Below, in pieces: positions 1 through 56,459 of a stretch of DNA of 64,000 nucleotides (the first letter of the stretch is position 1; each line of letters starts with the position of its first letter). The notes beneath the pieces were generated by a model, which was not told where the DNA came from, ran no database searches, and saw only the letters and a list, made by a program, of their open reading frames with translations. This DNA comes from a virus. Taxonomy: Duplodnaviria; Heunggongvirae; Uroviricota; Caudoviricetes. The stretch spans positions 55,871 to 119,870 of the IMG/VR virus record IMGVR_UViG_3300011399_000002. One strand, written 5' to 3'. Position numbers and translations under genes: made by a program.

Positions 1-106
1 TGATAGGTGTTCCCCCTGAGTGGTATCCTGACCCGGTAGAAGCACAGAATTTCTGGCACAGGTTAGATAACCTTGTAGGAGTTGGCCTAGAGGAAGGACC
101 AGTGAA

Positions 107-346
107 TTGAAGATAAAATTTTGGGAGGAAAAACTCCCCAAGTTTTGTTATGTTCATGGCTGTGAGTTAATCATGAAAGAGGTTAAGTGGAGAAATCCAC
201 GCTTTGATAAAAATACAGGTCAGGGCTACGAAGAACGAGCAAACGTCCTATATTGTCCCATCTTAAAGAAGCATAACGAATACTATGACGAGGATATTCT
301 AGTAGGGAAGCCTTGGAAGGTCCCGGTAAAGGCGAATTGTGAATGA
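107..346 (+). CDS. hypothetical protein
   Basis: 79-aa ORF with CxxC..H spacing; no recognisable family. Confidence 0.35.
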   Translation: MKIKFWEEKLPKFCYVHGCELIMKEVKWRNPRFDKNTGQGYEERANVLYCPILKKHNEYYDEDILVGKPWKVPVKANCE

Positions 347-543
347 GAACACCTATAGCACACACAGAAACATACCCTGATGCTGCCACGTTAAAGGTAG
401 GACTGTCAGAGAAGTATCCAGATAAGGTATTTCAGGTACGTAAGCGCAAGAATGGTTTTACCATAGTTGAGCGTACATTTCCGGCAAACAAGCCAGAAGT
501 TACTGAACGTCGAAGGAGCAAAAAGCGTGGCATATCTTTCTAA
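343..543 (+). CDS. hypothetical basic protein
   Basis: 66-aa ORF, ATGA-type overlap with upstream ORF, Lys/Arg-rich C-terminus. Confidence 0.3.
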   Translation: MRTPIAHTETYPDAATLKVGLSEKYPDKVFQVRKRKNGFTIVERTFPANKPEVTERRRSKKRGISF

Positions 544-823
544 CACTACTTATAACCGTATTGCAAAGACCCCTGAGCGCGCTAAGTTAATTCTTATCAA
601 TAGCAAAGGTGAATCTTCCACCGCAGGGGCTTTGATTAAACTGACCAAGACCAAGGGCAAGATTCATACTCGTTGGGAAACACTAGAGTCCAAGAACATT
701 CATCCCTTCACTCATGTTGCTCTGGTCATTAACAATGTGAGCCAAGTTATCTCTGGCATCAAGCCGATCCAGAACGCTGAGTTTGGCTTCATTGATATTG
801 ATTACGAAGGTGACAATGAGTAG
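467..823 (+). CDS. hypothetical protein
   Basis: 118-aa ORF; 5-prime end overlaps previous ORF so true start uncertain. Confidence 0.3.
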   Translation: MSVHFRQTSQKLLNVEGAKSVAYLSNTTYNRIAKTPERAKLILINSKGESSTAGALIKLTKTKGKIHTRWETLESKNIHPFTHVALVINNVSQVISGIKPIQNAEFGFIDIDYEGDNE

Positions 824-1040
824 TAAATGGGGAGAAGAGCAGTACGAATTAGTACAGCTTGACTGGAAAGAAATACTCTGGCACGTTAACTTTTTAAAGG
901 ACTCTGCCATTAGATTTGAACCTAACAACACCGATGTTAGGACCTATGATGCATTATTAAAACAGGCATTAACAATAGTCAGTGTAATTATTCACGGCAA
1001 GGTTGATGCGGAGGTTTTACAATCGATTAGAAAGGCGTGA
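783..1040 (+). CDS. hypothetical protein
   Basis: 85-aa ORF in compact plus-strand run. Confidence 0.3.
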   Translation: MASLILITKVTMSSKWGEEQYELVQLDWKEILWHVNFLKDSAIRFEPNNTDVRTYDALLKQALTIVSVIIHGKVDAEVLQSIRKA

Positions 1041-1851
1041 TTATTTGATTAAGCATATCTCCTATAGTTATCTCCATCTTCTAGCCTGTCCCTTTGCTGC
1101 GTTCCTACGGTACGAAGCAGGGATCAAGGCTCCGATGAATGAGTACCTAGCACTAGGAAATGCTCTTCACAAGGCGTTAGAGGATGGACATAAGGCCGCT
1201 TCATTTGAGGGGTCTTATGTCCATTCTGTCTTTACGAAAGAGTTTAACAGGATCATCACAGATGACGAGGTATTTGTAGGCTACCCACAGAAAAAGAAAC
1301 TAGAGGCAGCGGGAGCAGCCATGCTTGCTCTCTATACTGGACAGATTAAATCAGGCTCTATCTCCTCTACTCCATACAAGATAGAGGAAGGGTTTAAGAT
1401 ACCCTATAAGAACATTGTAATTGTTGGCCGCATAGATAAGGTAGAGTTTGATCAGGCAAGAGGCTACGATATCATTGACTATAAGTCAGGTAGCAGAGAA
1501 CCTGATCCTTGGTTTCTACGTCACAACCTACAGTTAACAGCGTATGCATGGGCCTGTCAGGAATTATATGGGGAGTTACCCCGCAAGGTTATCTGGCATC
1601 ACCTACGAAATGGTAAGAGACTAGAGACAGACAGAACCCAACAAGATATCGATCAACTAAAGAAGATGATCGATGCTGCTCTAAAGATGGAGCAACATAA
1701 GATACGCTACCGTGTCTTCCATGAAAAGATATGCGAATGGTGTGACTATGCTGGCGAAGGTAAAGAATGCGAAGACTATGACATTGAAGAGAGAATACTA
1801 AATGCTAAGAAGCCAAGAGCAGTGGGAGTTGATTCCGATAGAAAGGATTGA
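1003..1851 (+). CDS. PD-(D/E)XK nuclease, Cas4/RecB-like exonuclease
   Basis: DIIDYKSG core with upstream acidic residue, QxxxY, and C-terminal CEWCDYAGEGKEC cysteine cluster typical of Cas4/AddB-type nucleases. Confidence 0.5.
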   Translation: MMRRFYNRLERRDYLIKHISYSYLHLLACPFAAFLRYEAGIKAPMNEYLALGNALHKALEDGHKAASFEGSYVHSVFTKEFNRIITDDEVFVGYPQKKKLEAAGAAMLALYTGQIKSGSISSTPYKIEEGFKIPYKNIVIVGRIDKVEFDQARGYDIIDYKSGSREPDPWFLRHNLQLTAYAWACQELYGELPRKVIWHHLRNGKRLETDRTQQDIDQLKKMIDAALKMEQHKIRYRVFHEKICEWCDYAGEGKECEDYDIEERILNAKKPRAVGVDSDRKD

Positions 1852-2314
1852 ACCCTACTATAAGATAGCCCTAAAGGCGGCTAAGGAATCACCTTGTACA
1901 CGTAGAAAGTATGGCGCGGTGATTGGATATGACTCTGATCCTATCATGGTTACTGGTACTAATGCTAGAGTTAGTGGGTGCTGCGATGGTTACTGTGTTC
2001 GTGATCGTGCTGGCGTCGTTAATGGTTCGCGTACTGAATTGGGCGCAGAAGTACACGCAGAACAAGCAGCCCTAATCAATGCCCCTAAGAGGGGAGAAGT
2101 ATTTGTACTTGCTGGATGGCAGGTACAGAATGGCTTTGAGTTAACAGAGTTGAAAGGCACGGCTGTATATCCTTGTCTTGTATGTGCCCGCATGATTAAG
2201 TATGCAGGATATAGATGGGTACACATGAAGAATTTTGCAGGTAATCTAGATGTTTTTCACATTGATGATATCATTACAGCAAGGGAAATGGAGTTAGGTC
2301 CCCACTATGAATAA
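1802..2314 (+). CDS. deoxycytidylate (dCMP) deaminase
   Basis: CDA-fold zinc motifs HAEQAAL ... PCLVCARMI, N-terminal CTRRKYGAVIG as in dCMP deaminases. Confidence 0.7.
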   Translation: MLRSQEQWELIPIERIEPYYKIALKAAKESPCTRRKYGAVIGYDSDPIMVTGTNARVSGCCDGYCVRDRAGVVNGSRTELGAEVHAEQAALINAPKRGEVFVLAGWQVQNGFELTELKGTAVYPCLVCARMIKYAGYRWVHMKNFAGNLDVFHIDDIITAREMELGPHYE

Positions 2315-2522
2315 CTTTGCAGACATTATCCCTGACCTTGGGATACAGTTAGGTATCTCTGACATTACCTATTTAGATGTAGCAATCAATCAATCGAGGT
2401 ACTATGGCTACGAAGAAACAGCGGAGTGGTTCGAATACTGGAAGGAAAGGTTTGCACGATCCATCAGGGAGGAGTGGTATGTCGTGGGCGATCCCGAAGC
2501 TACCTTCGATCCCAACGGGTAA
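2307..2522 (+). CDS. hypothetical protein
   Basis: 71-aa ORF, ATGA overlap with deaminase stop. Confidence 0.3.
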   Translation: MNNFADIIPDLGIQLGISDITYLDVAINQSRYYGYEETAEWFEYWKERFARSIREEWYVVGDPEATFDPNG

Positions 2523-3042
2523 TCGAATTGCTTTCTTTGGTCCAATGGCATCAGGTAAAACTTACTGCGCTGACTATCTTGAATCCCAGTATGGGTACCA
2601 CAAGTTTACACTAGCAAGTAAGTTAAAGTCTATATGCTACGAGTTATATGGGATTCAAAGCAAGGACGGCGATGGCAGGAGAATGTACCAAGAAGTAGGT
2701 GATGCGTTAAGATCATTTGATAACGACGTATTCACCAAGTACACTCTGTCCTCTATCAATCAACGTTACTCTACTGAGAAGGTTGTTATTGATGACCTAA
2801 GATTACCAGCAGAGGCTACTTTGCTCAAAGAAGCAGGGTTTATTCTGGTGGGTATAAATACACCGTTTGATGTACGGCAGGAGAGGATCGACCGGCTCTA
2901 TCCAAGCGTCCCACAAGGCCGACAGAGCCACGCTACGGAGGTTTCTTGGGAAGCGATACCGATGGACACCTCCGTCAATTCCTCTGGCCCAGCGGACCTC
3001 ACAGATTTAGATGATTTAATGGCGTTCTATGACACAGATTAA
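2479..3042 (+). CDS. P-loop kinase (dNMP kinase / polynucleotide kinase-like)
   Basis: Walker A FFGPMASGKTY; start placed at ATG 2479 after GGGAGGAG RBS; T4 gp1-like small kinase size. Confidence 0.55.
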   Translation: MSWAIPKLPSIPTGNRIAFFGPMASGKTYCADYLESQYGYHKFTLASKLKSICYELYGIQSKDGDGRRMYQEVGDALRSFDNDVFTKYTLSSINQRYSTEKVVIDDLRLPAEATLLKEAGFILVGINTPFDVRQERIDRLYPSVPQGRQSHATEVSWEAIPMDTSVNSSGPADLTDLDDLMAFYDTD

Positions 3043-3586
3043 GATTGTTTTAGTAGGCAGCAATTCCATTGCTCGTCAGCGTGTTGCACGCTACCTAATG
3101 TACGAGGGCTTCACTCGTATGCATATGCTAGAGGGAGCCAAGCGAGCATTCAAATTGTTCTATGGCCCATCGTTTAGAACTAACACAGTTGCACCACAGA
3201 AGAAGGTGGACCTCTATGATGCTGTGTACAAGGTACTACCCGATGCATTTTTAGAGTACCTAAATTACCGTGTAATAAGAAGCGGGAAGAATATTGTAGT
3301 ACCAGATGCACGGTACGTTGATGAGGTTACATACCTTCATGATGAGTTAGGTTTTTGTATCGTAAGAGTCACTAGTGACTACAAGATGGTACGTCCGGGT
3401 AATGCTGTACGTGATGCGGGACCGGGAACAACTGTTCTTTATGAATCCTTTCTTCCATCCTTTAATGCTGCTAGTTACATGTACACACCTTACTACAGTG
3501 TCCATTGGTACGGAGACAAGGAAAAGGACAGGACAAGGGCCGCAGTAAAGCAAATGATAGACACCTTGAACCTCGGCTGGAAGTAG
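3029..3586 (+). CDS. hypothetical protein
   Basis: 185-aa ORF, ATGA overlap with kinase; no clear motif. Confidence 0.4.
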   Translation: MTQIKIVLVGSNSIARQRVARYLMYEGFTRMHMLEGAKRAFKLFYGPSFRTNTVAPQKKVDLYDAVYKVLPDAFLEYLNYRVIRSGKNIVVPDARYVDEVTYLHDELGFCIVRVTSDYKMVRPGNAVRDAGPGTTVLYESFLPSFNAASYMYTPYYSVHWYGDKEKDRTRAAVKQMIDTLNLGWK

Positions 3587-3598
3587 CGTACAATATTT

Positions 3599-4096
3599 GT
3601 GAACCCCATTCATTGGAGGTTCATCATGAGTAAAAGAAGTGCACACCTAACAAGGTTAACGATAGAAGGGATCAGCAGCTTCTCAGCATATAAAGGCGGG
3701 AGGCTTAACTATATCAGGGACTATGATCCTGACCCGACAATCAACGTTGACCTAACAGCAAAGATGGACGTAGAGCGGGCCATAAAAATCCTCTATGAAA
3801 GAGGGGAGTTAACCAAACAAGAAGTACAGATGCTTTTCTATGTAATGCTAGATGGTCGTCTATCAAGGCGGGATATAAGCAAAATGATCCAAGACCATGA
3901 AGGCTACTACGTAGACCAAAGAACCATCAGTAGAAGACTTGACTCAGCATACGGCAAGATATCAAAGTTTCTTGGCTATGAATACTCTGATGGCAGGGTC
4001 TTTAAGATGGTAGCAAAAGCATGGGGCAGACCTCATCCCTATATACTATCTGATGAGGAGATTGATAAGGTACAGACAGTTATGGAGCGTGTGTAA
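3599..4096 (+). CDS. putative HTH / sigma-region-4-like regulatory protein
   Basis: C-terminal RTISRRLDSAYGKISKFLGY resembles sigma region 4 HTH; weak. Confidence 0.35.
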   Translation: MNPIHWRFIMSKRSAHLTRLTIEGISSFSAYKGGRLNYIRDYDPDPTINVDLTAKMDVERAIKILYERGELTKQEVQMLFYVMLDGRLSRRDISKMIQDHEGYYVDQRTISRRLDSAYGKISKFLGYEYSDGRVFKMVAKAWGRPHPYILSDEEIDKVQTVMERV

Positions 4097-4290
4097 TGCC
4101 TAGGGGACGGCCTAGAAAGTATCCTGTTGTAGAAGAGGAACAACCAAAGACAATTCAATGGCTCATAGCAGAGGTAGCGCACGAATACTGTGGCATACCC
4201 GGATGCACAACTAAGTTACACTTACAGGAAGCATCACAGATAATGGACACCCTAAAGGATAATGGGTTTCAGATAAAGGAGAATGGTTAA
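4096..4290 (+). CDS. hypothetical protein
   Basis: 64-aa ORF, TAATG overlap. Confidence 0.3.
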   Translation: MPRGRPRKYPVVEEEQPKTIQWLIAEVAHEYCGIPGCTTKLHLQEASQIMDTLKDNGFQIKENG

Positions 4291-4516
4291 TTTGGCACGC
4301 TGCGTAGTATGCGAGCGAGTTACTAGTGGTTCGCTAGAGTTTTGTAGAAAGCACTATAACGATTTCAAGGACGACATTGCTGATAAGAAGCCTTGGGTCC
4401 GTGTATTAAAGAATGAATCCCAAAGAGAGCGAAGACGAAACAATAAAGAGTACGATAACACATCATTAGATGCAATCATTGACGGAGAATATATGTCTTA
4501 CCGGGATCGCTATTAA
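4283..4516 (+). CDS. hypothetical zinc-ribbon protein
   Basis: CVVC...FCRKH motif, 77 aa. Confidence 0.3.
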   Translation: MVNLARCVVCERVTSGSLEFCRKHYNDFKDDIADKKPWVRVLKNESQRERRRNNKEYDNTSLDAIIDGEYMSYRDRY

Positions 4517-4533
4517 GAAGGGGAGATATTTAG

Positions 4534-5571
4534 TTGGAAGATTTCATACGTTGGAGCCAGTATCCAGAGATACTTAACCGACTACTAGAGTTAGATGCCT
4601 CGCGGTATACGCAAGGTGAAATGTCAAGCATTATTAGAAGTGAATATCCTGAGGAAGTCAAGAGACTACCAAGCAGGGACCAGATAAAGAATGCCCTAGC
4701 CTATGCACGGGGACGAGCAGAATACATTGGCAATCGCCCTCGCGCACAGATCATGCCTTACTATGACAAGTATAGATTAGAAATCGAGGGAGTGAATGTA
4801 GTTGAGAAGGATTATGCCCTTTTACAATCGATTCTTGAAAAGCCAAAGCGCAAGGTACTCGTACTATCAGACCTACACGTACCATTCACAAATGAATCGA
4901 AACTACAGAAGGCCATAGACCTTAACCGCTCCGCTGATATTGTTGTTATCGGTGGAGACTTTTTAGATATGTATGGGTGTTCAAGGCACCGAAAGAGGAC
5001 CAATGTTCCACATGAAATTGAAGTTGATAACGGCATTCGCGTACTTGAATATCTCTCAGATGTGTTTCCTTGGGTGCGCATCATACGAGGCAATCATGAT
5101 GCTCGCGCGATGAAGAAGGTACAAGATGTTGTACCCGCTGAGTTGCTATACCTATTTGATAACGAACCCCTAGACCTAATGGTCAAGCCATTCTCCAACG
5201 TGGAGTATCTTGGTAACTGGTGGACACAACTAGGTGATACAATCGTAGCACATGCAGAAAGAAGTAGCACAATAGAAGGTAGACCGGCAGTATTACTTGG
5301 TAATTATTTTGAAGAGAAGGGCTGGGCCAAGAGATTAAAGCTACCTGAGATACGTGTCTATGTACAGGCTCATACGCACCAAGTATCCGCTGTCTATAGA
5401 GAAGACAAAAAATACTTTGAGTGCGGAGCATTAGTAGACGACCAATCCACTGCCGCAGAATATGTGACAGACTCTACCGCTTTCATGCGACCACCCCTTC
5501 ATGGTTGCGTGTCCTTGACACAGGTTAATGGTAGGACGGACTTCAACCAGAGCAGGGAGTATATCTTATAG
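4534..5571 (+). CDS. calcineurin-like metallophosphoesterase
   Basis: DLHVP, GGDFLD, GNHD, AHTH motif series of the metallophosphatase fold. Confidence 0.65.
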   Translation: MEDFIRWSQYPEILNRLLELDASRYTQGEMSSIIRSEYPEEVKRLPSRDQIKNALAYARGRAEYIGNRPRAQIMPYYDKYRLEIEGVNVVEKDYALLQSILEKPKRKVLVLSDLHVPFTNESKLQKAIDLNRSADIVVIGGDFLDMYGCSRHRKRTNVPHEIEVDNGIRVLEYLSDVFPWVRIIRGNHDARAMKKVQDVVPAELLYLFDNEPLDLMVKPFSNVEYLGNWWTQLGDTIVAHAERSSTIEGRPAVLLGNYFEEKGWAKRLKLPEIRVYVQAHTHQVSAVYREDKKYFECGALVDDQSTAAEYVTDSTAFMRPPLHGCVSLTQVNGRTDFNQSREYIL

Positions 5572-5927
5572 TGGAGACATTCTTATTACTCATCGTGCTT
5601 GTGGGTGTAGTAATCCTATGGGCCTATGACAAGTACAAGTTAAGACAATACACCGACGAGTACAACCATTTCAGTGAAGTGTTTGAGCTGGTCATGGACG
5701 GACAGGAAGATGTGGTCAGGGTAGTGAACGTAAATGCGTCCTCCCTACGCAGCCTACAGGCCACCGTAGACAGGCAGGACAAGAACGTTGCGATCCTGAG
5801 TACCCTCGTAGAGTTACATGCTGAGACACTAAAGGTAGGGGCAGACTTACGAAGTAAGTTAGAGTCAACAGCAATTCTTGATCTGCCTGTAGAGGAATTA
5901 GTTGATGAAGATGTTAACGAAGATTGA
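5571..5927 (+). CDS. hypothetical membrane-anchored protein
   Basis: N-terminal hydrophobic segment FLLLIVLVGVVILWAY; ATGG overlap. Confidence 0.35.
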   Translation: METFLLLIVLVGVVILWAYDKYKLRQYTDEYNHFSEVFELVMDGQEDVVRVVNVNASSLRSLQATVDRQDKNVAILSTLVELHAETLKVGADLRSKLESTAILDLPVEELVDEDVNED

Positions 5928-6132
5928 AGACGAGAAGATACTTAAATTAGCACTACGATTAGGACAAAAAATAGCGCCTCTAGATGCAAACCTAGAGGCG
6001 CAGGTAATAGAGATCGTTGAGGTGCTTAGAGAAGCATTCGACATAGGCTACTGGTCAGGGTTTAATGAAGGTGATCGTGACGGATATGATCGTGGCTATA
6101 ATGATGGACACGAAGACGGGTCTAGACAGTAG
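5902..6132 (+). CDS. hypothetical protein
   Basis: 76-aa ORF ending immediately before terminator. Confidence 0.3.
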   Translation: MMKMLTKIEDEKILKLALRLGQKIAPLDANLEAQVIEIVEVLREAFDIGYWSGFNEGDRDGYDRGYNDGHEDGSRQ

Positions 6133-6135
6133 GAA

Positions 6136-6170
6136 GGGGAGCAATCAAACGATTGCTCCCCTCTTTTTTA
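6136..6170. terminator. bidirectional rho-independent terminator
   Basis: GGGGAGCAATC-aaac-GATTGCTCCCC stem followed by TCTTTTTTATTT; sits between convergent plus and minus gene blocks. Confidence 0.6.
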
Positions 6171-6171
6171 T

Positions 6172-6795
6172 TTACCCTGAGATTGCTAACGGGATTCCTG
6201 TTTCCCGTGAGGCAATTGCTACCTCAATAGTTTCATCGAAGAATGGCTCTAGGACTTCATAAGCCATCTTTGCTACGTCTTTATATGTTTCTAGTACATA
6301 GACAGGGACTTGGATTTCCTCACCATCAATCATCTTAGACTCGTACTTACGAGTACCATTCTCATTGACTGCTCGTAGGTCATTCCAAGCGATAATCACT
6401 TGGCCTATCCCCTCGCCCATGCGATCACCGGCAGGTCCCCGTAGCCAAGGACTATCAGGAGCCTCATCTTCAAGGTCAAACCTATTAAGTTGTGACTCTA
6501 GAGAATTGTAATCATCATAAGAGGTTCTATCGGCTACGTCACCATAGCCCGCATTATATAGGAAGTTGGTAATCAAACCATTGTTAGCGGCTACACCTAG
6601 ATTGAATGCAGTTTGTGCTAGGATACAACCAGCCTTTGGTTGAAACTTATCCTCGATGTAGACGTTCTCCCCGAACCAAGTTTCACGAAGATGCTCAAAA
6701 CCATTCTTCTCTAGAGCAGCATAGACCTCACGTAGGGTGATGGTCTTAGTCTCTAGTTTGATATCGTTCTCGGGATCAATAATAATCGAAGGCAT
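6172..6795 (-). CDS. hypothetical protein, paralog family A
   Basis: Shares REVYxALxxNGFxHLR...GCILAQxAxNL block with ORFs 7131-7727 and 26733-27083. Confidence 0.5.
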   Translation of the reverse strand: MPSIIIDPENDIKLETKTITLREVYAALEKNGFEHLRETWFGENVYIEDKFQPKAGCILAQTAFNLGVAANNGLITNFLYNAGYGDVADRTSYDDYNSLESQLNRFDLEDEAPDSPWLRGPAGDRMGEGIGQVIIAWNDLRAVNENGTRKYESKMIDGEEIQVPVYVLETYKDVAKMAYEVLEPFFDETIEVAIASRETGIPLAISG

Positions 6796-6873
6796 TTACT
6801 TATCTCCTTTAAATATTATAAGATACATTATCCACATGATCAAACCTAATATCAATATCTCCATACGATCATC

Positions 6874-7134
6874 CTAAAATTTTGGGGGAGGAATTTCTCC
6901 AACTTTTTCCAAAGACATTGCTGCATCTATTAGGGCAGCATACCAAACAACGCGGGTAGGAAATAGCCCACGTTCATACTTGCTAACAGTAGATAGAGAA
7001 ACACCAGCCATGTTAGCGAATTCTTGCTGGCTCATCCCATTTAAAAGGCGCGTACTCTTTAGTACGCTCATTGTATAGTTAAGGCTCTCTAATCCTGCGG
7101 CTTGGTGGTAGTTGGTTAGATCAAGTTTCCTCAA
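6874..7134 (-). CDS. XRE-family helix-turn-helix transcriptional regulator
   Basis: LLNGMSQQEFANMAGVSLSTVSKYERG HTH. Confidence 0.6.
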   Translation of the reverse strand: MRKLDLTNYHQAAGLESLNYTMSVLKSTRLLNGMSQQEFANMAGVSLSTVSKYERGLFPTRVVWYAALIDAAMSLEKVGEIPPPKF

Positions 7135-7727
7135 AAAGCACCAACCTCTGCTAGTTGCTCATCAATCTTCATGGAATCATACTCAGCAGATATGACGTAG
7201 ATTACCTTCTTAAAATGGGGCTTCAAAACATCATAGGCCATATCTAGTACGTCTTTGTAAGTAGGAAGGGCATAGTTTCCATTTTCATCCCCCTTATCAT
7301 TCCAATGAATGATAGTTTGAGCGCAGTTTCCAAACGTATGCCATTTACTGTCGGGAGGAACACCAAAGCGATTTAGCTGGTGGGATAGAGTATACTCATT
7401 AAGTCTTTCTATAAGCACATCGGAGTTATTGCTGGTACGGTAGATATGGGTGAGGACAGGGACTTCTTTGGCCTCAGTCTCTATATCCCACTCTGGTAGG
7501 AGATTGAGGTTGAGTGCTGCTTGCCCCAAAATACAAGCACCTACAATCTTACCCTTGGCTTTGCTACTATAATCCTGTAATAGCCACTCGCCCCGAAGGT
7601 GGGTGAAGCCATTCTCTTTAAGGGCTTCATAAACCTCCCTAACTGTTAGTTTGGTTAGGGAAGCCTCGTATACGTATACACCTTTACCATCGTAGCCGTA
7701 CTTGATCTTCTTAGTAACCGTTTCCAT
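7131..7727 (-). CDS. hypothetical protein, paralog family A
   Basis: Paralog of 6172-6795 (VREVYEALKENGFTHLRGEW...GACILGQAALNL). Confidence 0.5.
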   Translation of the reverse strand: METVTKKIKYGYDGKGVYVYEASLTKLTVREVYEALKENGFTHLRGEWLLQDYSSKAKGKIVGACILGQAALNLNLLPEWDIETEAKEVPVLTHIYRTSNNSDVLIERLNEYTLSHQLNRFGVPPDSKWHTFGNCAQTIIHWNDKGDENGNYALPTYKDVLDMAYDVLKPHFKKVIYVISAEYDSMKIDEQLAEVGAF

Positions 7728-29867: not shown

Positions 29868-30314
29868 ATGGATACTAGATACTACTGGCATATCCACCAT
29901 GAAGAACTAGTAGAACCATTAATGGTTGGTCAGAATATAGATAAGCGGGTATACTACATAAATTGGGGCAAACCAGTAGACCAAAGACCATTAAGACTAC
30001 ATCTTATGAGGCCAGCATATATACCTGAGGATATACAAGGGAAGATAAGACGTAATGGTCTAGGTACCATTCTATATGACCCTGATTATAGTAGTGTGCG
30101 CACAGAGATAAATGATCTTCATGCCAAACAGTGTGATCCTCTTTGTCCTTTTGCTCTAGAAGATGAAAGATATCCAGATGATCCAGAAACGATATTCCAT
30201 TACCGTGATCTAGATGGTAATTGGTGTCTATCTGGTAGAGAGAACAGTAGAACATCAGACTGGGCGCAAGAGAATACATATAAAGAACCTATAAGAGAGA
30301 GTATAGAGACATAA
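29868..30314 (+). CDS. hypothetical protein
   Basis: 148-aa ORF, last gene before cassette array. Confidence 0.45.
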   Translation: MDTRYYWHIHHEELVEPLMVGQNIDKRVYYINWGKPVDQRPLRLHLMRPAYIPEDIQGKIRRNGLGTILYDPDYSSVRTEINDLHAKQCDPLCPFALEDERYPDDPETIFHYRDLDGNWCLSGRENSRTSDWAQENTYKEPIRESIET

Positions 30315-30520: not shown

Positions 30521-30540
30521 GAGCCAATGGAGCGTGGGTT
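30521..30540 (+). repeat. GAGCCAATGGAG cassette motif copy 1
   Basis: GAGCCAATGGAG-cgtgggtt-ATATAA-GGTACTA; downstream 8-bp hairpin ATATAAGG/CCTTATAT. Confidence 0.6.
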
Positions 30541-30610: not shown

Positions 30611-30837
30611 ATTTAGCAAGGGCTGGGTATAAATTCGTGCACAAATCTCATAAAAAGTGTCATTTTACTGTATATGCCGATACAAAATAAAAATCGAATT
30701 AGAATGGAGTCCAGTTACGTAGAGTATATACAAAAAAGAACCATATCCATATACTATGGTATATACCTGCACCTTCATCTGTTGAGATTAACCCTGGCCC
30801 ATTCTTGCTGACATTAGTGCTTTCAATAAAGAAGCAT

Positions 30838-30866
30838 TTGACACCATATTCGACCTGTGATATAAT
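30838..30866 (+). promoter_or_regulatory. consensus sigma70 promoter for cassette-1 gene
   Basis: TTGACA-17 nt-TATAAT, followed by ~100-nt leader with GTACCGC...GCGGTAC hairpin. Confidence 0.65.
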
Positions 30867-30971
30867 CAGGGTACCGCAGATGCGACAGGGCGGTACTTAA
30901 CAACTGAATAGGGTCAGGAATTAGTGGGACTGATTGAACCTGTGATTTCACAAAGAAAGGTTCAACCTGAA

Positions 30972-31268
30972 ATGACCACCTACACTATCGCCAAGATTCG
31001 CGTCGTTACTCCCACCGAAACCATGCGCGAGAAGCATCCAGATCGTGCATTCACTGTCTTCGGTCAATTCTTCAATGAGAAGGGTGACAAGTTGTCGATC
31101 ACTAATAAGGTGATCACAACGGAAGACATTCTGCATCCTGAATTCAACATCGATGTTGCAAAGGGATTGCTCACAATTCATTCTGGCGAAAGGGGACGCA
31201 AAGCAGCGGCTTCAATCACACAGAATGACGTTAACGACATTCTCACTGCAATCCGCAAGTCCAAGTAA
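30972..31268 (+). CDS. cassette-1 small protein, paralog family B
   Basis: Start at MTTYTIAK aligns with MALVTYFV of ORF 31756; shared GERGRKA and LTI blocks. Confidence 0.5.
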   Translation: MTTYTIAKIRVVTPTETMREKHPDRAFTVFGQFFNEKGDKLSITNKVITTEDILHPEFNIDVAKGLLTIHSGERGRKAAASITQNDVNDILTAIRKSK

Positions 31269-31378
31269 ATTCAATTAGTTTCACTTCTCCTGATCCTATT
31301 TAGTTGTTAATCATTCAGTTTCAATTAAGTAATTTAATAAAGTAAATTAAATTAAATTTCAATTTATTTACATAAGCC

Positions 31379-31398: not shown

Positions 31399-31592
31399 AT
31401 ATTGGGATACTACATTGAAATTCATATCCTGTTCCATAAAATGAATTAGATTTGGTCGCGTTTACATAAACGAATTACAATTCGGATGCGGTTACATATC
31501 CATATCCATATCCATGCACCAATTGGTGAGTGCCAATCTTTCTCCGATTGATGATGCCGCGAAGGTTGCGAAGCCCTCCCAGCGGTGTAACC

Positions 31593-31629
31593 GAACCGCA
31601 ACCTTACCGCTACCCTACCGCAATTGACG
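31593..31629 (+). promoter_or_regulatory. ACCGCAA direct-repeat / TTGAC element (cassette 2)
   Basis: gaACCGCAACCttACCGCtaccctACCGCAATTGACg ~125 bp upstream of ORF 31756. Confidence 0.4.
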
Positions 31630-31755
31630 CGAGAGGCACAATCCGCGAAGATACACCTATCACCAACGAGGAACGCTCCTCCCGGTGAGAACCTTAACAA
31701 GAGAATAGGAACAGGGGACCTACCCGCCGAACAGGCAGAAAGGTAAGGTCCACCA

Positions 31756-32124
31756 ATGGCGCTCGTTACGTATTTCGTTGACAAGATGCGCGCGGTTCCC
31801 CCGACTGGTAAGGTCGCGGAGAATAACCCCGAGCGTGTCCTCACCGTCAATGGCGTTTTCTACAGCACCAAGATTGACGAGAACGGCAATCGGGTTCGCA
31901 ATGAGAAGATGTCCTACACTACCAAAGCCGTCGATATCGAAGATGTCCTCGCAGGGGCGGAAGTCGATCTAGACGCCGGTACGCTCACCATTCCCGCAGG
32001 GGAGCGGGGACGCAAAGCCGATCCGGGGCTGGACGCTAATAGCGTCACGTCGCTACTCAATTCCATCCGCAATCCAATTCCTGAGCCCGAGCCGACACCG
32101 GCACCGGCCACCAAGAGCAAGTAA
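31756..32124 (+). CDS. cassette-2 small protein, paralog family B (GC-rich copy)
   Basis: Paralog of 30972-31268; AGGTAAGG RBS; C-terminal PEPEPTPAPA tail. Confidence 0.5.
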   Translation: MALVTYFVDKMRAVPPTGKVAENNPERVLTVNGVFYSTKIDENGNRVRNEKMSYTTKAVDIEDVLAGAEVDLDAGTLTIPAGERGRKADPGLDANSVTSLLNSIRNPIPEPEPTPAPATKSK

Positions 32125-32250
32125 CTAATTGGTCCCCTGTTCCTATCTCTCACCTAATCCTATTCTGTAACGTAATTGTAACGTAATTGCAACCATTACA
32201 AATACATTACAATTTCATTACAAAATCGAATTAGAACAGGCGTTCGTTAC

Positions 32251-32270
32251 AGCCAATGGAGTGAGGACCC
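32251..32270 (+). repeat. GAGCCAATGGAG cassette motif copy 4
   Basis: cAGCCAATGGAG-tgaggacc-CTGTAA-GGGGACTA. Confidence 0.55.
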
Positions 32271-32325
32271 TGTAAGGGGACTATGATCATCAGAATGATG
32301 AGAATAGGCCAATCCTTCGGATAGT

Positions 32326-32370
32326 CCGCAACCTTATCGCAACCATATCGATACCGAACCGCAATTGACA
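32326..32370 (+). promoter_or_regulatory. ACCGCAA direct-repeat / TTGACA element (cassette 3)
   Basis: CCGCAACCttatCGCAACCatatcgatACCGaACCGCAATTGACA. Confidence 0.4.
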
Positions 32371-32439
32371 TAGGGAACAGGAACAGGCATAGTACGCATA
32401 TCAGGTAAGTCACCTGAGCCACGGAGAAAGTAACAGAAT

Positions 32440-32697
32440 ATGGCAAGATATACGGAACCTGAAATCTCTACCGATCGTATCCATGATGACGGACCGTCAT
32501 TCGATATCACCCGGACAGAGATTGTCGGAACGGTTCACCTCTCCACAATGGGGAAGGATAGTCCCGTTAGCGTAGCGTTCGGGATCATCGCATCCTATCT
32601 CAATGAGAACCTTCGTTGGGACGGCGATACCGAAATCTCATTCACGGTTCCTGAGGGTCATACCTTCACAATCAACGCTACTCCCGCTCGTCAATAG
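32440..32697 (+). CDS. cassette-3 small protein
   Basis: 85-aa ORF after AGGTAAGT...GGAGAAAG RBS region. Confidence 0.45.
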   Translation: MARYTEPEISTDRIHDDGPSFDITRTEIVGTVHLSTMGKDSPVSVAFGIIASYLNENLRWDGDTEISFTVPEGHTFTINATPARQ

Positions 32698-32802
32698 CCT
32701 GTAGGATCAACGTTCCTGCGCCTATCTCCCCGATGCAATCTACAAAGTAAATTGTTGATTGAAACGAGAGATTGCATCAAATGGGCGCAGGAATAAATCC
32801 TA
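32698..32802 (+). terminator. long imperfect hairpin (terminator-like) after cassette-3 ORF
   Basis: Nested inverted repeats TGTAGGAT/ATCCTACA, TTCCTGCGCC/GGCGCAGGAA, GATGCAATCT/AGATTGCATC. Confidence 0.35.
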
Positions 32803-32995
32803 CACAATGTCTTAAAGATAGACGAAAGGTAGGGTGATTAATATCCGACGATAGATATAGAGTACGCTAGGTAAATGTACTGGAAATGCGTACACTGGTA
32901 GTCAAAAACCTGATACTACCATCCGAATAAGTAAATGCATACTAATACAAATGAATAACTATTCATAAAAATGAATAAATATACATAATTGAATT

Positions 32996-33015
32996 GAGCC
33001 AATGGAGTAGGAACC
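32996..33015 (+). repeat. GAGCCAATGGAG cassette motif copy 5
   Basis: GAGCCAATGGAG-taggaacc-TATATG-AGGTACT, flanked by AATTGAGCC/GGCTCAATT inverted repeat. Confidence 0.6.
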
Positions 33016-33216
33016 TATATGAGGTACTGGCTCAATTGTTGAGCCTGAGATTGAAAGCGCTCAATTGAATTACAAATTGAATTGCGTTCAGGTTCGAATT
33101 CGAATTGAATTGCATTCTTGTTCTGTTCTATACGCACAGGCGCCACGCGCACGCACGCGCACGGACCTATAGGATGCGCCCCGGAGAAAGGTTGCGATAG
33201 GCGAAATCGTTAGCTA

Positions 33217-33256
33217 CCGAACCGCAACCATTTCGTAACCGTACCGCAATAGACAA
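33217..33256 (+). promoter_or_regulatory. ACCGCAA direct-repeat element (cassette 4)
   Basis: ACCGaACCGCAACCatttcgtAACCGtACCGCAATAGACA. Confidence 0.35.
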
Positions 33257-33343
33257 TCCTCTCGCAGAGGAGCATGATGTGCACATCAGATCGATACCCG
33301 ATCTGAGCCGGGAGGCAGGAAAGCCTCACAGTCAACAGAAAGG

Positions 33344-33649
33344 TTGGCACATAGGATGGGCGTCTTTCTCGATCAGGCGGTTCTGGTTCTGGAACTGGCA
33401 CCGGACGATACGCTGGCCGCGTGGACTGAGGACTACCTCAATCGCGCTCCGGCATTCTTCTCCCCCGACGCCGATCCGTCGCAGGTGATGGCAGACTCTC
33501 TGCTGGGCAACCTGTTGGAGAACGAGAACCGGCAGCGCGGGAACGCTGCTACGGCTCGCAAGGTCTTCGCCGTCGTGAATGACGCGATTGGCACCGGCTA
33601 CGCCTCCTATGAGGATTACCTCGCGTCGATCCTCGACAACGGCTTCTAG
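33344..33649 (+). CDS. cassette-4 small protein
   Basis: 101-aa ORF, GC-rich. Confidence 0.4.
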   Translation: MAHRMGVFLDQAVLVLELAPDDTLAAWTEDYLNRAPAFFSPDADPSQVMADSLLGNLLENENRQRGNAATARKVFAVVNDAIGTGYASYEDYLASILDNGF

Positions 33650-33657
33650 CCTAGCCT

Positions 33658-33688
33658 AGGGGAGAGGGATGCATAATCCCTCTCCCCT
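33658..33688 (+). terminator. strong hairpin terminator after cassette-4 ORF
   Basis: AGGGGAGAGGGAT-gcata-ATCCCTCTCCCCT, 13-bp perfect stem. Confidence 0.5.
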
Positions 33689-33781
33689 ATACAATGCATA
33701 TACAATGCATATGTATACTGTATAATCATACATGCATGAATATGCATGATGATGAATAATTATGCATCGAACATTTGTTCT

Positions 33782-33800
33782 GAGCCAATGGAATGAGAAC
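33782..33800 (+). repeat. GAGCCAATGGAG cassette motif copy 6
   Basis: GAGCCAATGGAa-tgagaacc-ATGATG-AGGGACTA. Confidence 0.55.
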
Positions 33801-33964
33801 CATGATGAGGGACTATGGATGAATTGAACAAGCGTTCGAATTCGAATTCGAATTGGATTTCGTTCTTGTTCCCGTTCTAGTGCATGGCTATGGATGGGTA
33901 GCATGGATTGGATGAGCATGGATGAGCCATGACCCCATGAGGGTAGGGCTCATCTATGAGAATG

Positions 33965-33998
33965 TAACCCAATCGCAACCTTTCTGCTACTTGACAAT
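33965..33998 (+). promoter_or_regulatory. CGCAACC / TTGACA element (cassette 5)
   Basis: aaCCCAATCGCAACCtttctgctacTTGACAatg. Confidence 0.35.
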
Positions 33999-34068
33999 GA
34001 CGCATGGTGCGGTACGATGGGCGTAGCCCATCGAGGTTCGATGGTAGATGGTAGAAAGGGTTAGATAG

Positions 34069-34401
34069 ATGATCTACTTTGAGAATGCGAAGCGTACAAT
34101 CGATGCGACAAACGTGCCGTTTCTCAACGGATCGAACGTCGGACCCGGCTTTATGATCGATGACGCCTATACGATGGAAAGTGAGCGCGCACGGTACAGC
34201 GAAGCGCACGATACCTTGACGCTTTGGGTCCAGCGCAAGGAATTCGCAGGATCGTACGCGAAGCGCAACATGCATGATCTGCTCTACGTGTTGGGTGACG
34301 AATTCGACCGCAACGAATTCGAAGCGTTCCTCGCCTATGAGAATGAGACAGATATGATGGTGACAGCCTACCGTCATGAGATGACAGTCGCGGGGTTCTA
34401 G
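34069..34401 (+). CDS. cassette-5 small protein
   Basis: 110-aa ORF, RBS GAAAGGGTTAGATAGATG; preferred over antisense ORF 33877-34407. Confidence 0.45.
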   Translation: MIYFENAKRTIDATNVPFLNGSNVGPGFMIDDAYTMESERARYSEAHDTLTLWVQRKEFAGSYAKRNMHDLLYVLGDEFDRNEFEAFLAYENETDMMVTAYRHEMTVAGF

Positions 34402-34570: not shown

Positions 34571-34605
34571 CTAGGGGATTGTATATCTATACAGTCCCCT
34601 AGTAT
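34571..34605 (+). terminator. hairpin CTAGGGGA...TCCCCTAG
   Basis: 8-bp stem, 16-nt loop, ends the cassette array. Confidence 0.35.
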
Positions 34606-34609
34606 TCAA

Positions 34610-35440
34610 ATGAATACTTATGCATAATATGACTTTGCCCGACTGTTACAGTCTACAAATAGTGGAACCAAAATCTGCAACTTTTTAGATAACTCTATTC
34701 CCATCATAAATGATGGTAACGCTCTAAATTTACATGGTAATATCGACCAAGGCAAAAGAAAAGCCCTACTAGGGATCAAAAGAGTCCGGGGGGAAACTCT
34801 CAATCAACCTAGTAGGGCTTTCCTGTGTAGGGCTAAAAATTGATCAGCCGTGAGACAGAAGTCTTTAGCACTACACAGGATCAGCGTCACAATTGGACGC
34901 CCATATTAAGTTAGGTGACTGTCGTTTATGACAGCCGCTATCCGTTAGGATAGTTAGGTGGGGAGTGGGATTCAAGTTTACCCACATGACTCGACAGGAC
35001 TACTTTTCTCAAAGAAGTATTTACGAGTCAACCAACCGTTAGCCTTGACGCGAATTCATTCTCTTTGATGCTATCGTAAAGTTTGAATTCAGGCAACGCT
35101 TCGGCTCCGGTCAAAGAGCCTCCGTCATACTTTTACCTACTGCACTACTTGTTTAAGGTAATGTGTTTAGGTTTGACTAATCTCAGAAGTTTTACCCTTG
35201 ATTAGCCGACGTTATCTGCGTCCGATTGTACGTTACGCGACTGACCCTGTGGCAGTCACTTTCCGTCATCCCCCTGCAACCGCCGCTAAGCGGCTGCATT
35301 GGTTGTACTATAGGGCACCTGAGCGATCCCGTCAAGTTAAGGTTCCTTAACCGAGTTTCAGGAGCGTGTAAGTTTGAGTAAAATTGCGCTTGACCGCAGA
35401 ATAGACCCGTGGTAGGATAGTAGGACGTACCCGGTATGGG
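34610..35440. other. ORF-poor structured non-coding region
   Basis: No credible ORF; 14-bp hairpin AAAGCCCTACTAGG...CCTAGTAGGGCTTT (34762-34821), CCGCCGCTAAGCGGC palindrome, many shorter stems. Confidence 0.3.
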
Positions 35441-52795: not shown

Positions 52796-52915
52796 TCTTT
52801 AGTGTAGTGTTTGTTACGGTTCCTTCGATAAATGTATATCAATTGACTTCAAATCAATCTTTGTAGGTTCAAGTCCTACAGGAATAATGTCCGTAGCGCC
52901 TCTATCCTCACTAAT
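52796..52915 (+). ncRNA. element D: Y-RNA-like RNA enclosing a tRNA-like cloverleaf (anticodon-position UCA)
   Basis: TTAGTGTAG pairs with CTA(tcct)CACTAA ~95 nt downstream; enclosed 52818-52887 folds as acceptor GGTTCCT/AGGAATA, D GATA/TATC, ATTGA-CTTCAAA-TCAAT, T-arm GTAGG-TTCAAGT-CCTAC, no CCA. Confidence 0.4.
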
Positions 52916-55852: not shown

Positions 55853-56459
55853 AGGTATCCCCTTTTATCTGCATGACAGCGGTGATTTATTATCTGGCGC
55901 AATAGAGAGAAATGGAGACTTTTGGGAAGCAGATATCCTAGACTACATACGGGATAATCATCCAGAGCATATGTCAATATTGGACATAGGTGCTAACATA
56001 GGTAATCATTCTGTCTACTTTGCAAACTTTCTAAAGTATGCATCTATCATGTGCTTTGAGCCCGAAACTCTAAACTACGATGTTCTAACAAACAACATGA
56101 GTGGCTATTCTAATATAGGATTGGCTAAGTTTGCTGTATCTGATAAAACCGGAACGGCAGCGTTCATACGAAATGGGGATAATTTTGGGGCACATAGAAT
56201 TAACGATCAAGGTGATGAAATAGTAAAAACTATCTCTATCGATAAAATAGCGTTGGGCCATGTTACGCTGATGAAGATTGACGTTGAGGGCCACGAACCA
56301 GCGGTTCTAGATGGAGCAACAGATACCATCATACGATGCAAGCCGCTTATCCTGATAGAAGACTGGGATTTAGAGTATCATAGAATCCTTAGTCCTCTTG
56401 GATACGAGATAGAGAAAGATTGGGAGCATCATAAGACTTACCTTTGGAGGCCAGTATGA
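55833..56459 (+). CDS. FkbM-family methyltransferase
   Basis: ILDIGANIGNHSVYFA motif. Confidence 0.6.
   Translation: MRQIHLRGIPFYLHDSGDLLSGAIERNGDFWEADILDYIRDNHPEHMSILDIGANIGNHSVYFANFLKYASIMCFEPETLNYDVLTNNMSGYSNIGLAKFAVSDKTGTAAFIRNGDNFGAHRINDQGDEIVKTISIDKIALGHVTLMKIDVEGHEPAVLDGATDTIIRCKPLILIEDWDLEYHRILSPLGYEIEKDWEHHKTYLWRPV

Follow-up and report, generated by a model that had tools for sequence, protein, structure and literature searches.

A phased 11-bp direct-repeat element, probably a protein-binding operator, at the promoters of four small-gene cassettes in an uncultured large phage

Results

The cassette array and its repeat element

The DNA analyzed here (the window; 64,000 nucleotides, positions 55,871 to 119,870 of IMG/VR record IMGVR_UViG_3300011399_000002) is part of an uncultured large phage, and between 30.3 and 34.6 kb it holds an array of five small open reading frames (ORFs) and one ORF of 28-45 aa. 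We describe a repeated element with an 11-bp period which precedes four of these five small ORFs and is probably an operator. All five lie on the plus strand: ORF1 (98 aa, 30972-31268) and ORF2 (122 aa, 31756-32124), the first and second paralogue of an unnamed family, followed by ORF3 (85 aa, 32440-32697), ORF4 (97 aa, 33356-33649) and ORF5 (110 aa, 34069-34401). The spacers between them are 300-650 bp long. GC-rich segments (50-65% GC) begin 60-100 bp upstream of the element and stop at the stop codon, while the remaining spacer DNA is 17-40% GC.

Upstream of each of cassettes 2 to 5, three or four direct units follow one another with a period of exactly 11 bp, each unit being made up of a core of 7 nt, YGYWACC (in most cases CGCAACC), and a variable linker of 4 nt. 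The element of cassette 2 occupies 31586-31629 (+; units TGTAACCGAAC CGCAACCTTAC CGCTACCCTAC CGCAATTGACG, starting at 31586, 31597, 31608 and 31619), that of cassette 3 occupies 32327-32370 (+; CGCAACCTTAT CGCAACCATAT CGATACCGAAC CGCAATTGACA, from 32327, 32338, 32349 and 32360) and that of cassette 4 occupies 33212-33255 (+; AGCTACCGAAC CGCAACCATTT CGTAACCGTAC CGCAATAGACA, from 33212, 33223, 33234 and 33245). Cassette 5 carries a shortened variant with a 1-nt shift (33963-33996, +; TGTAACCCAAT CGCAACCTTTC TGCTACTTGACA, from 33963, 33974 and 33985). In both cassettes 2 and 4 an inverted unit (GGTTGCG) is found exactly 26 bp before the first direct unit. The inverted unit of cassette 2 (31560-31570, minus strand CGCAACCTTCG) had a position weight matrix (PWM) score of 11.1, and that of cassette 4 (33186-33196, minus strand CGCAACCTTTC) scored 12.9, formed part of a 17-nt inverted repeat (94%) and was the exact reverse complement of the second unit of cassette 5 (CGCAACCTTTC). 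The initial annotation of this DNA had described the element as two to three direct repeats of ACCGCAA(C/T) present in every one of these cassettes. The repeat itself is real, as judged from shuffled sequence and from conservation, but that frame was two bases off, AC being the end of the linker and CGCAAY the core, and ACCGCAA is absent from cassette 5, whose units read TGTAACC, CGCAACC and TGCTACT.

Per-position information was 0.63-1.53 bits at unit positions 1-7 and 0.19-0.44 bits at positions 8-11, with G2 and A5 present in all 15 of the window units. ACCGCAAY was observed 9 times against 2.25 expected, a count reached in 0 of 100 shuffles, and CCGCAAY-N10-30-CGCAAT occurred 3 times against 0.03 expected. 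Chains of at least three loose cores at an exact 11-bp period numbered 3 in the window and 0 in 200 dinucleotide-preserving shuffles; when only the GC-rich stretch was shuffled, 500 rounds yielded 0.002 on average. The period of 11 was called independently by Tandem Repeats Finder at 31595-31623 and 32327-32350. Additional ACCGCAA-repeat sites, for which the initial annotation had suggested a search, were not found; the chain search returned no further copy of the element in the rest of the 64-kb window nor in the 7.2 kb past its right end. Since the mutual similarity of cassettes 2 to 5 is confined to about 50 nt, with identity down to 60%, the units appear to have been kept by selection and not to be leftovers of recent duplication.

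Searches of wider collections were made with the pattern of the element. The strict three-unit pattern gave 0 matches in IMG/VR. When metagenomes and genomes were searched with an 11-periodic pattern, those of the listed matches that were inspected, and those of lowest GC content, were unrelated 11-bp tandem repeats containing CGCAACC, which were matched because the search pattern is itself periodic; one related locus was among the matches listed, a JGI fragment identical to the window (L165). The scans also turned up a 31% GC metagenomic contig in which CTACCGCAACC, an 11-mer word shared with the window, is repeated twelve times in tandem in an intergenic region (L068, 2790-2910). In Bacteroidota chromosomes, intergenic palindromic arrays of 11-bp units were seen in the form GGGTTGCGATAGGGTT ... 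TAGGTnTACCTA ... AACCCTATCGCAACCC x3-4 (loci L116, L119, L121, L078, L187, L211, L234, L254 and L108 of the metagenome and genome scans), with several copies in one metagenome-assembled genome (CAIYOZ01). These arrays were considered as relatives of the element and dropped, as they are located between housekeeping genes and the resemblance was treated as superficial; they are probably unrelated to the phage element.

Promoters of the cassettes

Candidate sigma-70/sigma-A-type promoters, with a TTGACA-like and a TATAAT-like hexamer 16-18 bp apart, were found at the element. In cassette 2, the -35 hexamer TTGACG (31624-31629) lies inside the last unit, CGCAATTGACG, and the candidate -10, GAAGAT (31647-31652), was read from the sequence 17 bp further on, giving a predicted start at about 31659. 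For cassette 3, TTGACA (32365-32370) is followed with a spacer of 17 by CATAGT (32388-32393; 10/12, predicted start about 32400); for cassette 4, TAGACA (33250-33255) is followed with the same spacer by CATGAT (33273-33278; 9/12, predicted start about 33285); and for cassette 5, TTGACA (33991-33996) is followed with a spacer of 16 by TACGAT (34013-34018; 10/12, predicted start about 34025), all on the plus strand. Each -35 hexamer is contained in the last unit of its element, the direct units spanning about -73 to -30. The fusion of the repeats to TTGACA that had been annotated was therefore exact in cassettes 3 and 5 only, cassettes 2 and 4 having TTGACG and TAGACA. The distance from the -35 hexamer to the ATG was 132, 75, 106 and 78 bp in cassettes 2, 3, 4 and 5, not the uniform 110-130 bp previously given.

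The -10 regions, which had been called poor, were only moderately so. Cassettes 3, 4 and 5 passed a sigma-70 consensus scan with 10, 9 and 10 of 12 positions, while the cassette 2 promoter (TTGACG-17-GAAGAT) scored 8/12 by hand count and was not listed by the scan; these candidate -10 boxes are mediocre, not absent. Cassette 1 lacks the element and has no units upstream of its promoter, a TTGACA-17-TATAAT sequence with TG at 30838-30866 (+) which agrees with the consensus at 12/12 positions, as the initial annotation had recognized. Promoter-like sites in the region totaled 11 against 10.2 in shuffles. Because this total is not enriched, the case for the promoters is built on the constant way in which they are placed relative to the units and ORFs, and on their conservation. 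Counted from its first base, the last unit precedes the -10 by 27-29 bp in each of the four window promoters and likewise in two related contigs, L064 and L316.

Conservation of the element in related phages

Related loci were found through the protein family of ORF1 and ORF2, and the contigs of six members were readable. The two ORFs are paralogues with 43% identity to each other and belong to a family whose members are about 100 aa long and share the motif GTLT(I/L)PxGERGRK, for which 62 matches at E <= 0.001 and 42 at <= 1e-10 were obtained among 1.84 billion representative proteins. Members occurred as a tandem paralogue pair at every locus where both genes were readable. The family members compared were only 27-50% identical to ORF2. 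A predicted model of ORF1 was beta-rich with a C-terminal helix and matched no known fold; neither a ribbon-helix-helix (RHH) nor a helix-turn-helix (HTH) fold was found in it. No match to the family profile was obtained with ORF3, ORF4 or ORF5. Comparison of ORF1-5 with Pfam and PHROGs gave nothing usable, the sensitivity of such searches being limited for small proteins, and the sole Pfam/PHROG match in the array was a sub-threshold one of a 45-aa ORF to DUF5392.

The promoter of the second paralogue bore the repeat units in every lineage examined, with phased units in five related lineages (L064, L307, L305, L310 and L316). The units in L064 are CGATACCGAAC CGCAACCTAAC CGTAACCTTCC CGCAACCATAG, with a spacer of 16 nt and a -10 of TATTGT with TGg; those in L307 are GGTTGCGatgat TGCAACCTACGA TGTAACCGTGC TGCAACCTTCA GGGGTAGACAA, with a -10 of TAAAGT and TGg. 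L305 has GGTTGCGgttc and then CTTAACCTTTC CTTAACCTAAA ATGAGTTGTTT (spacer 16 nt, -10 TATAGT with TGc), and L310 has GGTTAAGgttc and then CTTAACCTGTC CTTAACCTCCC CTTGGTTGTAT (spacer 17 nt, -10 TATTCT). L316 carries CTTAACCAAAT CGCAACCTTCG GATGCTTGACA (spacer 17 nt, -10 TACTTT). The inverted GGTTGCG or GGTTAAG of the relatives stands next to the direct units, being adjacent to them in L305, L307 and L310. When nine promoters from six lineages were aligned, AACC-N7-ACC, with the two parts 11 bp apart, was the sole invariant block, at a constant distance to the -10. The whole spacer of the window and that of L064 agreed at about 76% per column, gaps included.

Exact CTTAACC(T) units were found in L305, L310 and L316. 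In L316 a CTTAACC unit and a CGCAACC unit stand 11 bp apart immediately ahead of TTGACA, and in L305 direct CTTAACC units are accompanied by an inverted GGTTGCG; since both words occur together in this manner, they are versions of one site. The orthologous units of L305 and L310 read CTTAACCTttcCTTAACCT and CTTAACCTgtcCTTAACCT, that is, CTTAACCT with 3-bp linkers.

The promoter of the first paralogue was plain and strong in L064, L307, L310 and L314, while that of L305 bears two CCTTAAC units, one inverted and one direct, before TTGACT. At the second paralogue, a weak or missing -35 in L064, L307 and L305 was accompanied by a TGn extended -10, L310 being without TGn, whereas the promoters with a TTGACA-type -35 (cassettes 2 to 5 of the window and L316) have no TGn. 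As the -35 and TGn compensate for one another across most lineages, intrinsic promoter strength appears to be under selection.

Because ORF3, ORF4 and ORF5 carry the element although the ORF1/2 profile does not match them, the promoter of the second paralogue, with its candidate operator, has evidently been re-used in front of these three ORFs.

Other conserved features of the array

A second conserved box, GAGCCAATGGAG-N13-GRGGKACT (about 35 nt; the GCCAATGGAG box), occurs with fixed bipartite spacing on the plus strand at 30521, 30592, 31379, 32250, 32996 and 33782. Each TTGACA box is preceded by the GAGCCAATGGAG box at a distance of 110-250 bp, and the 71 kb examined hold no other copy; in relatives the corresponding place is taken by GCCAATGGA or GCCCATGGA. 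A phage-specific promoter and a cassette boundary are possible roles for the box. A coding role of the GCCAATGGAG box was rejected, some copies having stop codons in every frame. A search of IMG/VR with the GAGCCAATGGAG box gave 61 single, chance-like matches, none of them similar to the array.

Long inverted repeats bracket ORF1 (30880-30939 with 31269-31324; duplex -57.9 kcal/mol, z -10 vs shuffles) and ORF2 (31701-31721 with 32130-32150; duplex -41.7 kcal/mol, z -3.8 vs shuffles), in each case pairing the 5' untranslated region (UTR) with the 3' flank. A bracket made of other sequences was seen in L307, L310 and L314, and a weaker one in L305 (z -1.4). Since the same pairing is formed by different sequences across lineages, the bracket is compensatory (co-varying). 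Such a bracket is suggestive of paired mRNA ends or of processing by RNase III. Cassettes 3 to 5 are without a bracket and have local 3' hairpins instead.

A non-coding block at 31446-31512, GTCGCGTTTACATAAACGAATTACAATTCGGATGCGGTTACATATCC, was about 90% identical in L064, and it holds three TTACA motifs, the reverse complement of a TGTAA core. An AAAATCGAATTAGAA box and further conserved non-coding blocks at 30693-30708 and 32222-32237 were also noted. The spacers are moreover full of short tandem repeats with periods of 5-20 bp; between 30300 and 34700, 11 of 18 spacer tandem-repeat arrays had a period of 10, 11 or 20 bp, and the repeat word differs from spacer to spacer (examples at 32166-32224, 33688-33712 and 32945-32988). 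The first of these consists of TGTAACGTAAT x2.5 and then its inverted counterpart CATTACAAATA x2.8, the first part being a perfect TGTAAC-N5-TGTAAC. The GCCAATGGAG box, the complementary flanks of ORF1 and ORF2 and the pervasive 10-11 bp repeats may be more unusual than the operator itself.

Genome context

The window encodes a class II ribonucleotide reductase (RNR), a family A DNA polymerase (PolA) and a primase, as well as NAMPT, PRPP-synthetase-like, IMPDH/GMP-reductase-like and Ro60/TROVE proteins and ten tRNA genes. It is identical to ENA contig ERZ27267736:k141_281400 (119,888 bp), and mapping through two loci gave record coordinate = 127606 minus window coordinate. Positions 1-7717 of the window therefore fall past the end of that contig, so that the window must derive from a different assembly or from a circularly permuted genome. 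No DNA similarity to the array was found among 50,697 phage records, and the ORF2 protein had no match in the same records. PolA was about 27-30% identical to the best-listed phage records, NAMPT was 60-65% identical to homologues of Bacillus and Alicyclobacillus phages, and RNR was about 36% identical to the RNRs of Rhodobacter, Brevibacillus and Synechococcus phages.

Among the phage tRNA genes, ARAGORN placed a tRNA with anticodon TCA (label SeC) at 52818-52887 (+), which may be of the opal-suppressor type. The protein of the upstream neighbor of the array (29868-30314) had no homologues. Downstream, an ORF-poor region (34600-35440, about 850 nt without a convincing ORF) contains on the minus strand, at 34955-35120, a full-length but sub-threshold match to the manA RNA motif (RF01745; 34.2 bits vs a gathering score of 55.2, E = 3.4e-6), and there may be a structured RNA on that strand.

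Discussion

A probable operator at the cassette promoters

What the sequences show is the repeats with their period, where they stand with respect to the promoter hexamers, and that they are conserved; binding by a protein, the family of that protein and the direction of regulation are inferred. In our view the element is probably an operator to which a sequence-specific protein binds. An exact 11-bp period, units of 7 conserved and 4 variable positions and a head-to-tail order running up to the -35 argue for a protein site on a single helix face. The earlier view that a protein recognizes the element thus gains from its geometry, its link to sigma-70-type promoters and its conservation in five lineages, with the amendment that the putative site has three to four units of 11 bp and not two to three copies of ACCGCAA. 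A promoter-proximal, phased direct-repeat operator is a familiar type of which this is a new example; to our knowledge, the repeat unit of the window itself is known nowhere else.

In the mechanism that we propose, a protein would bind cooperatively along one face of the helix to the three or four head-to-tail units, placed at about -73 to -30 of a sigma-70/sigma-A-type promoter with the last unit overlapping the -35, and so would set the output of the promoters of cassettes 2 to 5. In cassettes 2 and 4, the inverted unit would add a site some 2.5 turns farther upstream. Having a perfect promoter without units, cassette 1 would be constitutive. The operator-bearing promoter would originally have belonged to the second paralogue of the ORF1/2 pair and would later have been re-used before three ORFs not detectably related to that family. 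As these promoters look able to fire alone, modulation of a basally active promoter is expected and not strict activator dependence, and repression through covering of the -35 is as plausible as further activation. The activator dependence that the initial annotation had read from poor -10 regions is not supported in that form, as three of the four promoters pass the consensus scan, the -35 hexamers are at or near consensus, and the -35 and TGn compensate for one another in the relatives.

A candidate regulator of the OmpR/PhoB type

With regard to the identity of the protein, we tentatively put forward a winged-helix response regulator of the OmpR/PhoB type, probably the host's own, as the most likely binder; the cassettes would thereby be tied to a host signal. 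The PHO boxes bound by E. coli PhoB, B. subtilis PhoP and cyanobacterial SphR are reviewed as direct units of 11 nt, about 7 positions of which are conserved and 4 variable (PMC4415409), and they likewise consist of two to four such units arranged head to tail and extending to the -35 region of a sigma-70 promoter (PMC4415409, PMC1906773). Operators of this type are expected to have head-to-tail direct repeats with a period of 10-11 bp, 6-8 conserved and then 3-5 poorly conserved positions in each unit, and units that abut or overlap the -35 of a sigma-70-type promoter. The window elements agree with this in their 11-bp register (with the 1-nt shift of cassette 5), in their 7 conserved and 4 poorly conserved positions, and in a last unit that contains the -35, with the -10 a further 16-17 bp on. 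The SphR Pho-box consensus is CTTAACCT-N3-CTTAACCT and the Anabaena pstS1 site is TTTAACCTttcGTTAACCT (PMC1906773). The orthologous element of L305 and L310 equals this consensus, and that of L305 differs from the pstS1 site, as listed in that paper, at only 2 of 19 positions. In the window, the core CGCAACCT matches 6 of the 8 positions of SphR CTTAACCT and fits the WalR half-site TGTWAH in part.

The boxes of WalR/VicR, with the scheme TGTWAH-N5-TGTWAH and footprinted CGTAAT half-sites (PMC4168254), share the 11-bp period as a hexamer plus a 5-nt spacer, and TGTAAC is an allowed half-site (PMC4168254). The TGTAAC-N5-YGYAAC units of the window resemble this scheme; cassettes 2 and 5 begin TGTAAC-N5-CGCAAC, and the spacer sequence at 32166-32193 reads TGTAAC-N5-TGTAAC-N5-TGCAAC. 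Unlike WalR/VicR sites, however, most window units have C at positions 1 and 3 and there are three to four units rather than two, and no Firmicute is known as the host.

Control of phage genes by way of the host's PhoB boxes has a precedent in P-SSM2 pstS and in S-PM2d, where boxes for a host regulator lie on phage accessory genes (PMC10976474). Those cyanophage boxes are single and degenerate and stand upstream of known metabolic genes, whereas the window has four near-identical operator candidates before ORFs without assigned function, and its phage is not a known cyanophage. In the 99 other window ORFs scanned, no OmpR-type, Trans_reg_C or Response_reg domain was found, so that an OmpR/PhoB-type binder, if correctly proposed, must have its gene outside the stretch of genome available here.

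A number of observations weigh against this proposal. The study of S-PM2d itself warns that Pho-box predictions in phage genomes are unreliable (PMC10976474). The window units, CGCAACC or TGTAACC, have an invariant G at position 2 (15/15) where SphR boxes have T, and periods of 10-11 bp are common across these intergenic regions, so that the phasing alone is not specific to the element. Between the window and L064, the cores were barely better kept than the linkers (7/28 vs 6/16 differences by hand count). For NAMPT the nearest homologues come from phages of Bacillus and Alicyclobacillus, whereas the Pho boxes are matched in cyanobacteria. We know of no published regulator consensus that matches the window unit exactly. 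The window promoters keep a good -35 hexamer, whereas classical PhoB-dependent promoters lack one, and the additional inverted unit of cassettes 2 and 4, which sets them apart from PHO boxes, is unusual for head-to-tail binding by the OmpR family and common for RHH repressors.

Alternative explanations

The alternative which survives best, although we hold it to be unlikely, is that a phage-encoded repressor or timing regulator, for example an RHH protein of the ParR, omega or Arc kind, polymerizes on the units, covers the -35 and shuts off the early cassettes after the first minutes of infection, with cassette 1 escaping. The 11-bp parC iterons of R1, to which ParR binds, and the omega heptads of pSM19035 are likewise phased direct and inverted repeats over a promoter; they are bound cooperatively by a small repressor and autoregulate the operon of the binder. 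One inverted unit together with two to four direct units reproduces their layout, the window elements being phased direct and inverted short repeats that overlap a promoter, although with fewer repeats. Promoters that look intrinsically active, with -35 and TGn compensating in most lineages, also favor repression over obligatory activation, and confinement of the element to the array would be expected of a dedicated phage regulator. The palindrome of L310, AGGTTAAGGttCCTTAACCT, has a centre of only 2 nt, which is more in keeping with a dimer bound to double-stranded DNA than with a hairpin. As for candidate binders, an XRE-type HTH protein is encoded in the window at 6874-7131 (-), and a MarR-like protein and a TacA-like RHH protein were detected in the window without being placed among the ten ORFs tested. 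XRE and MarR proteins, however, normally bind palindromes and not three to four direct repeats. No RHH gene or other DNA-binding gene was recognizable in or beside the array, and no cognate small DNA-binding gene was found in the regulated operons, ORF1-5 having no Pfam or PHROG match in searches of limited sensitivity. A repressor of this kind would also leave unexplained why the unit equals a host Pho-box consensus in the relatives.

It is improbable, in our estimation, that the element acts without any regulatory protein, either as promoter-region homology that serves as crossover points or as a product of replication slippage. The array does look hyperplastic, in that the ORFs of cassettes 3, 4 and 5 show no detectable relation to one another, have their own promoters and are separated by long repeat-rich spacers filled with many other tandem repeats of 5-20 bp period, and the operator-bearing promoter was evidently copied before ORF3-5. 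Composite promoter/terminator motifs mediate such shuffling in the PeSL cassettes of T4-like phages, which share with this array small, mostly unrelated ORFs with their own early-type promoter and conserved motifs at their flanks, and the re-use of a promoter module before different genes (PMC4122927). PeSLs differ in showing no sequence similarity to the array and no phased operator, and the window spacers, at 300-650 bp, are far more complex. Membership in the PeSL class was rejected, since this is not a T4-like genome (it had no DNA match among the phage records, and its PolA is about 27-30% identical to the best-listed ones), and the architecture is only analogous. Slippage would give identical neighbors, whereas here the cores are kept and the linkers differ, both within and between lineages, and the register relative to the -10 box is fixed. 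The change of word from CTTAACC to CGCAACC with period, number and position kept is what binding-site constraint would produce, not crossover homology.

Structural DNA, that is, a bent or UP-element-like region stimulating RNA polymerase directly, seems very improbable; the element does lie at -40 to -73 with a phasing of about one helical turn, where UP elements and curved DNA act, but its units are GC-rich and without A-tracts, whereas UP elements and classical bends are A/T-rich, and the conserved letters G2 and A5-C6-C7 form a base-specific pattern. Iterons of a replication origin or a parC-like partition centromere are scarcely credible, since the 11-bp phased direct repeats, although beside very AT-rich stretches (17-30% GC) and about 10 kb from the primase and PolA genes, form four separate copies each at a fixed distance from a promoter and ORF, have no initiator or ParM/ParA-type gene adjacent, and in the relatives occur as a single copy before one gene.

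Several other readings were tried and rejected. An RNA hairpin of inverted and direct units would leave a loop of 2 nt in the L310 palindrome. By eye, the second half of an NtcA site (GTA-N8-TAC) does not fit, nor does the spacing of a sigma-54 (-24/-12) promoter on the opposite strand, and HLR1/RpaB has a period of 10 bp and not 11. Integron attC sites were likewise discarded by eye, the cassettes having their own promoters and direct repeats upstream of the ORFs, and CCGCAAC misfitting RYYYAAC.

Implications for the phage and its relatives

A more specific proposal, which we regard as doubtful, is that the cassette promoters are wired to a host two-component response regulator and that the box has been re-targeted during the evolution of this phage group, the relatives having the canonical CTTAACCT, this phage CGCAACC, and L316 and L305 hybrids. 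The related loci offer a comparative series for the drift of operator specificity, from CTTAACC through the hybrid to CGCAACC. If re-targeting is true, the series would show a phage operator moving between regulator specificities or hosts, and the spread of the operator to three further cassettes would represent a small phage regulon responding to a host signal. The element provides a bait sequence with which the regulator, and possibly also the host, may be identified, and candidate promoters for the annotation of this phage group. If a host regulator does bind, the expression of these orphan accessory genes would follow the physiology of the host cell, with phosphate and envelope stress as examples of what it may respond to; this would extend beyond the marine cyanophages an idea so far shown for few cyanophage genes.

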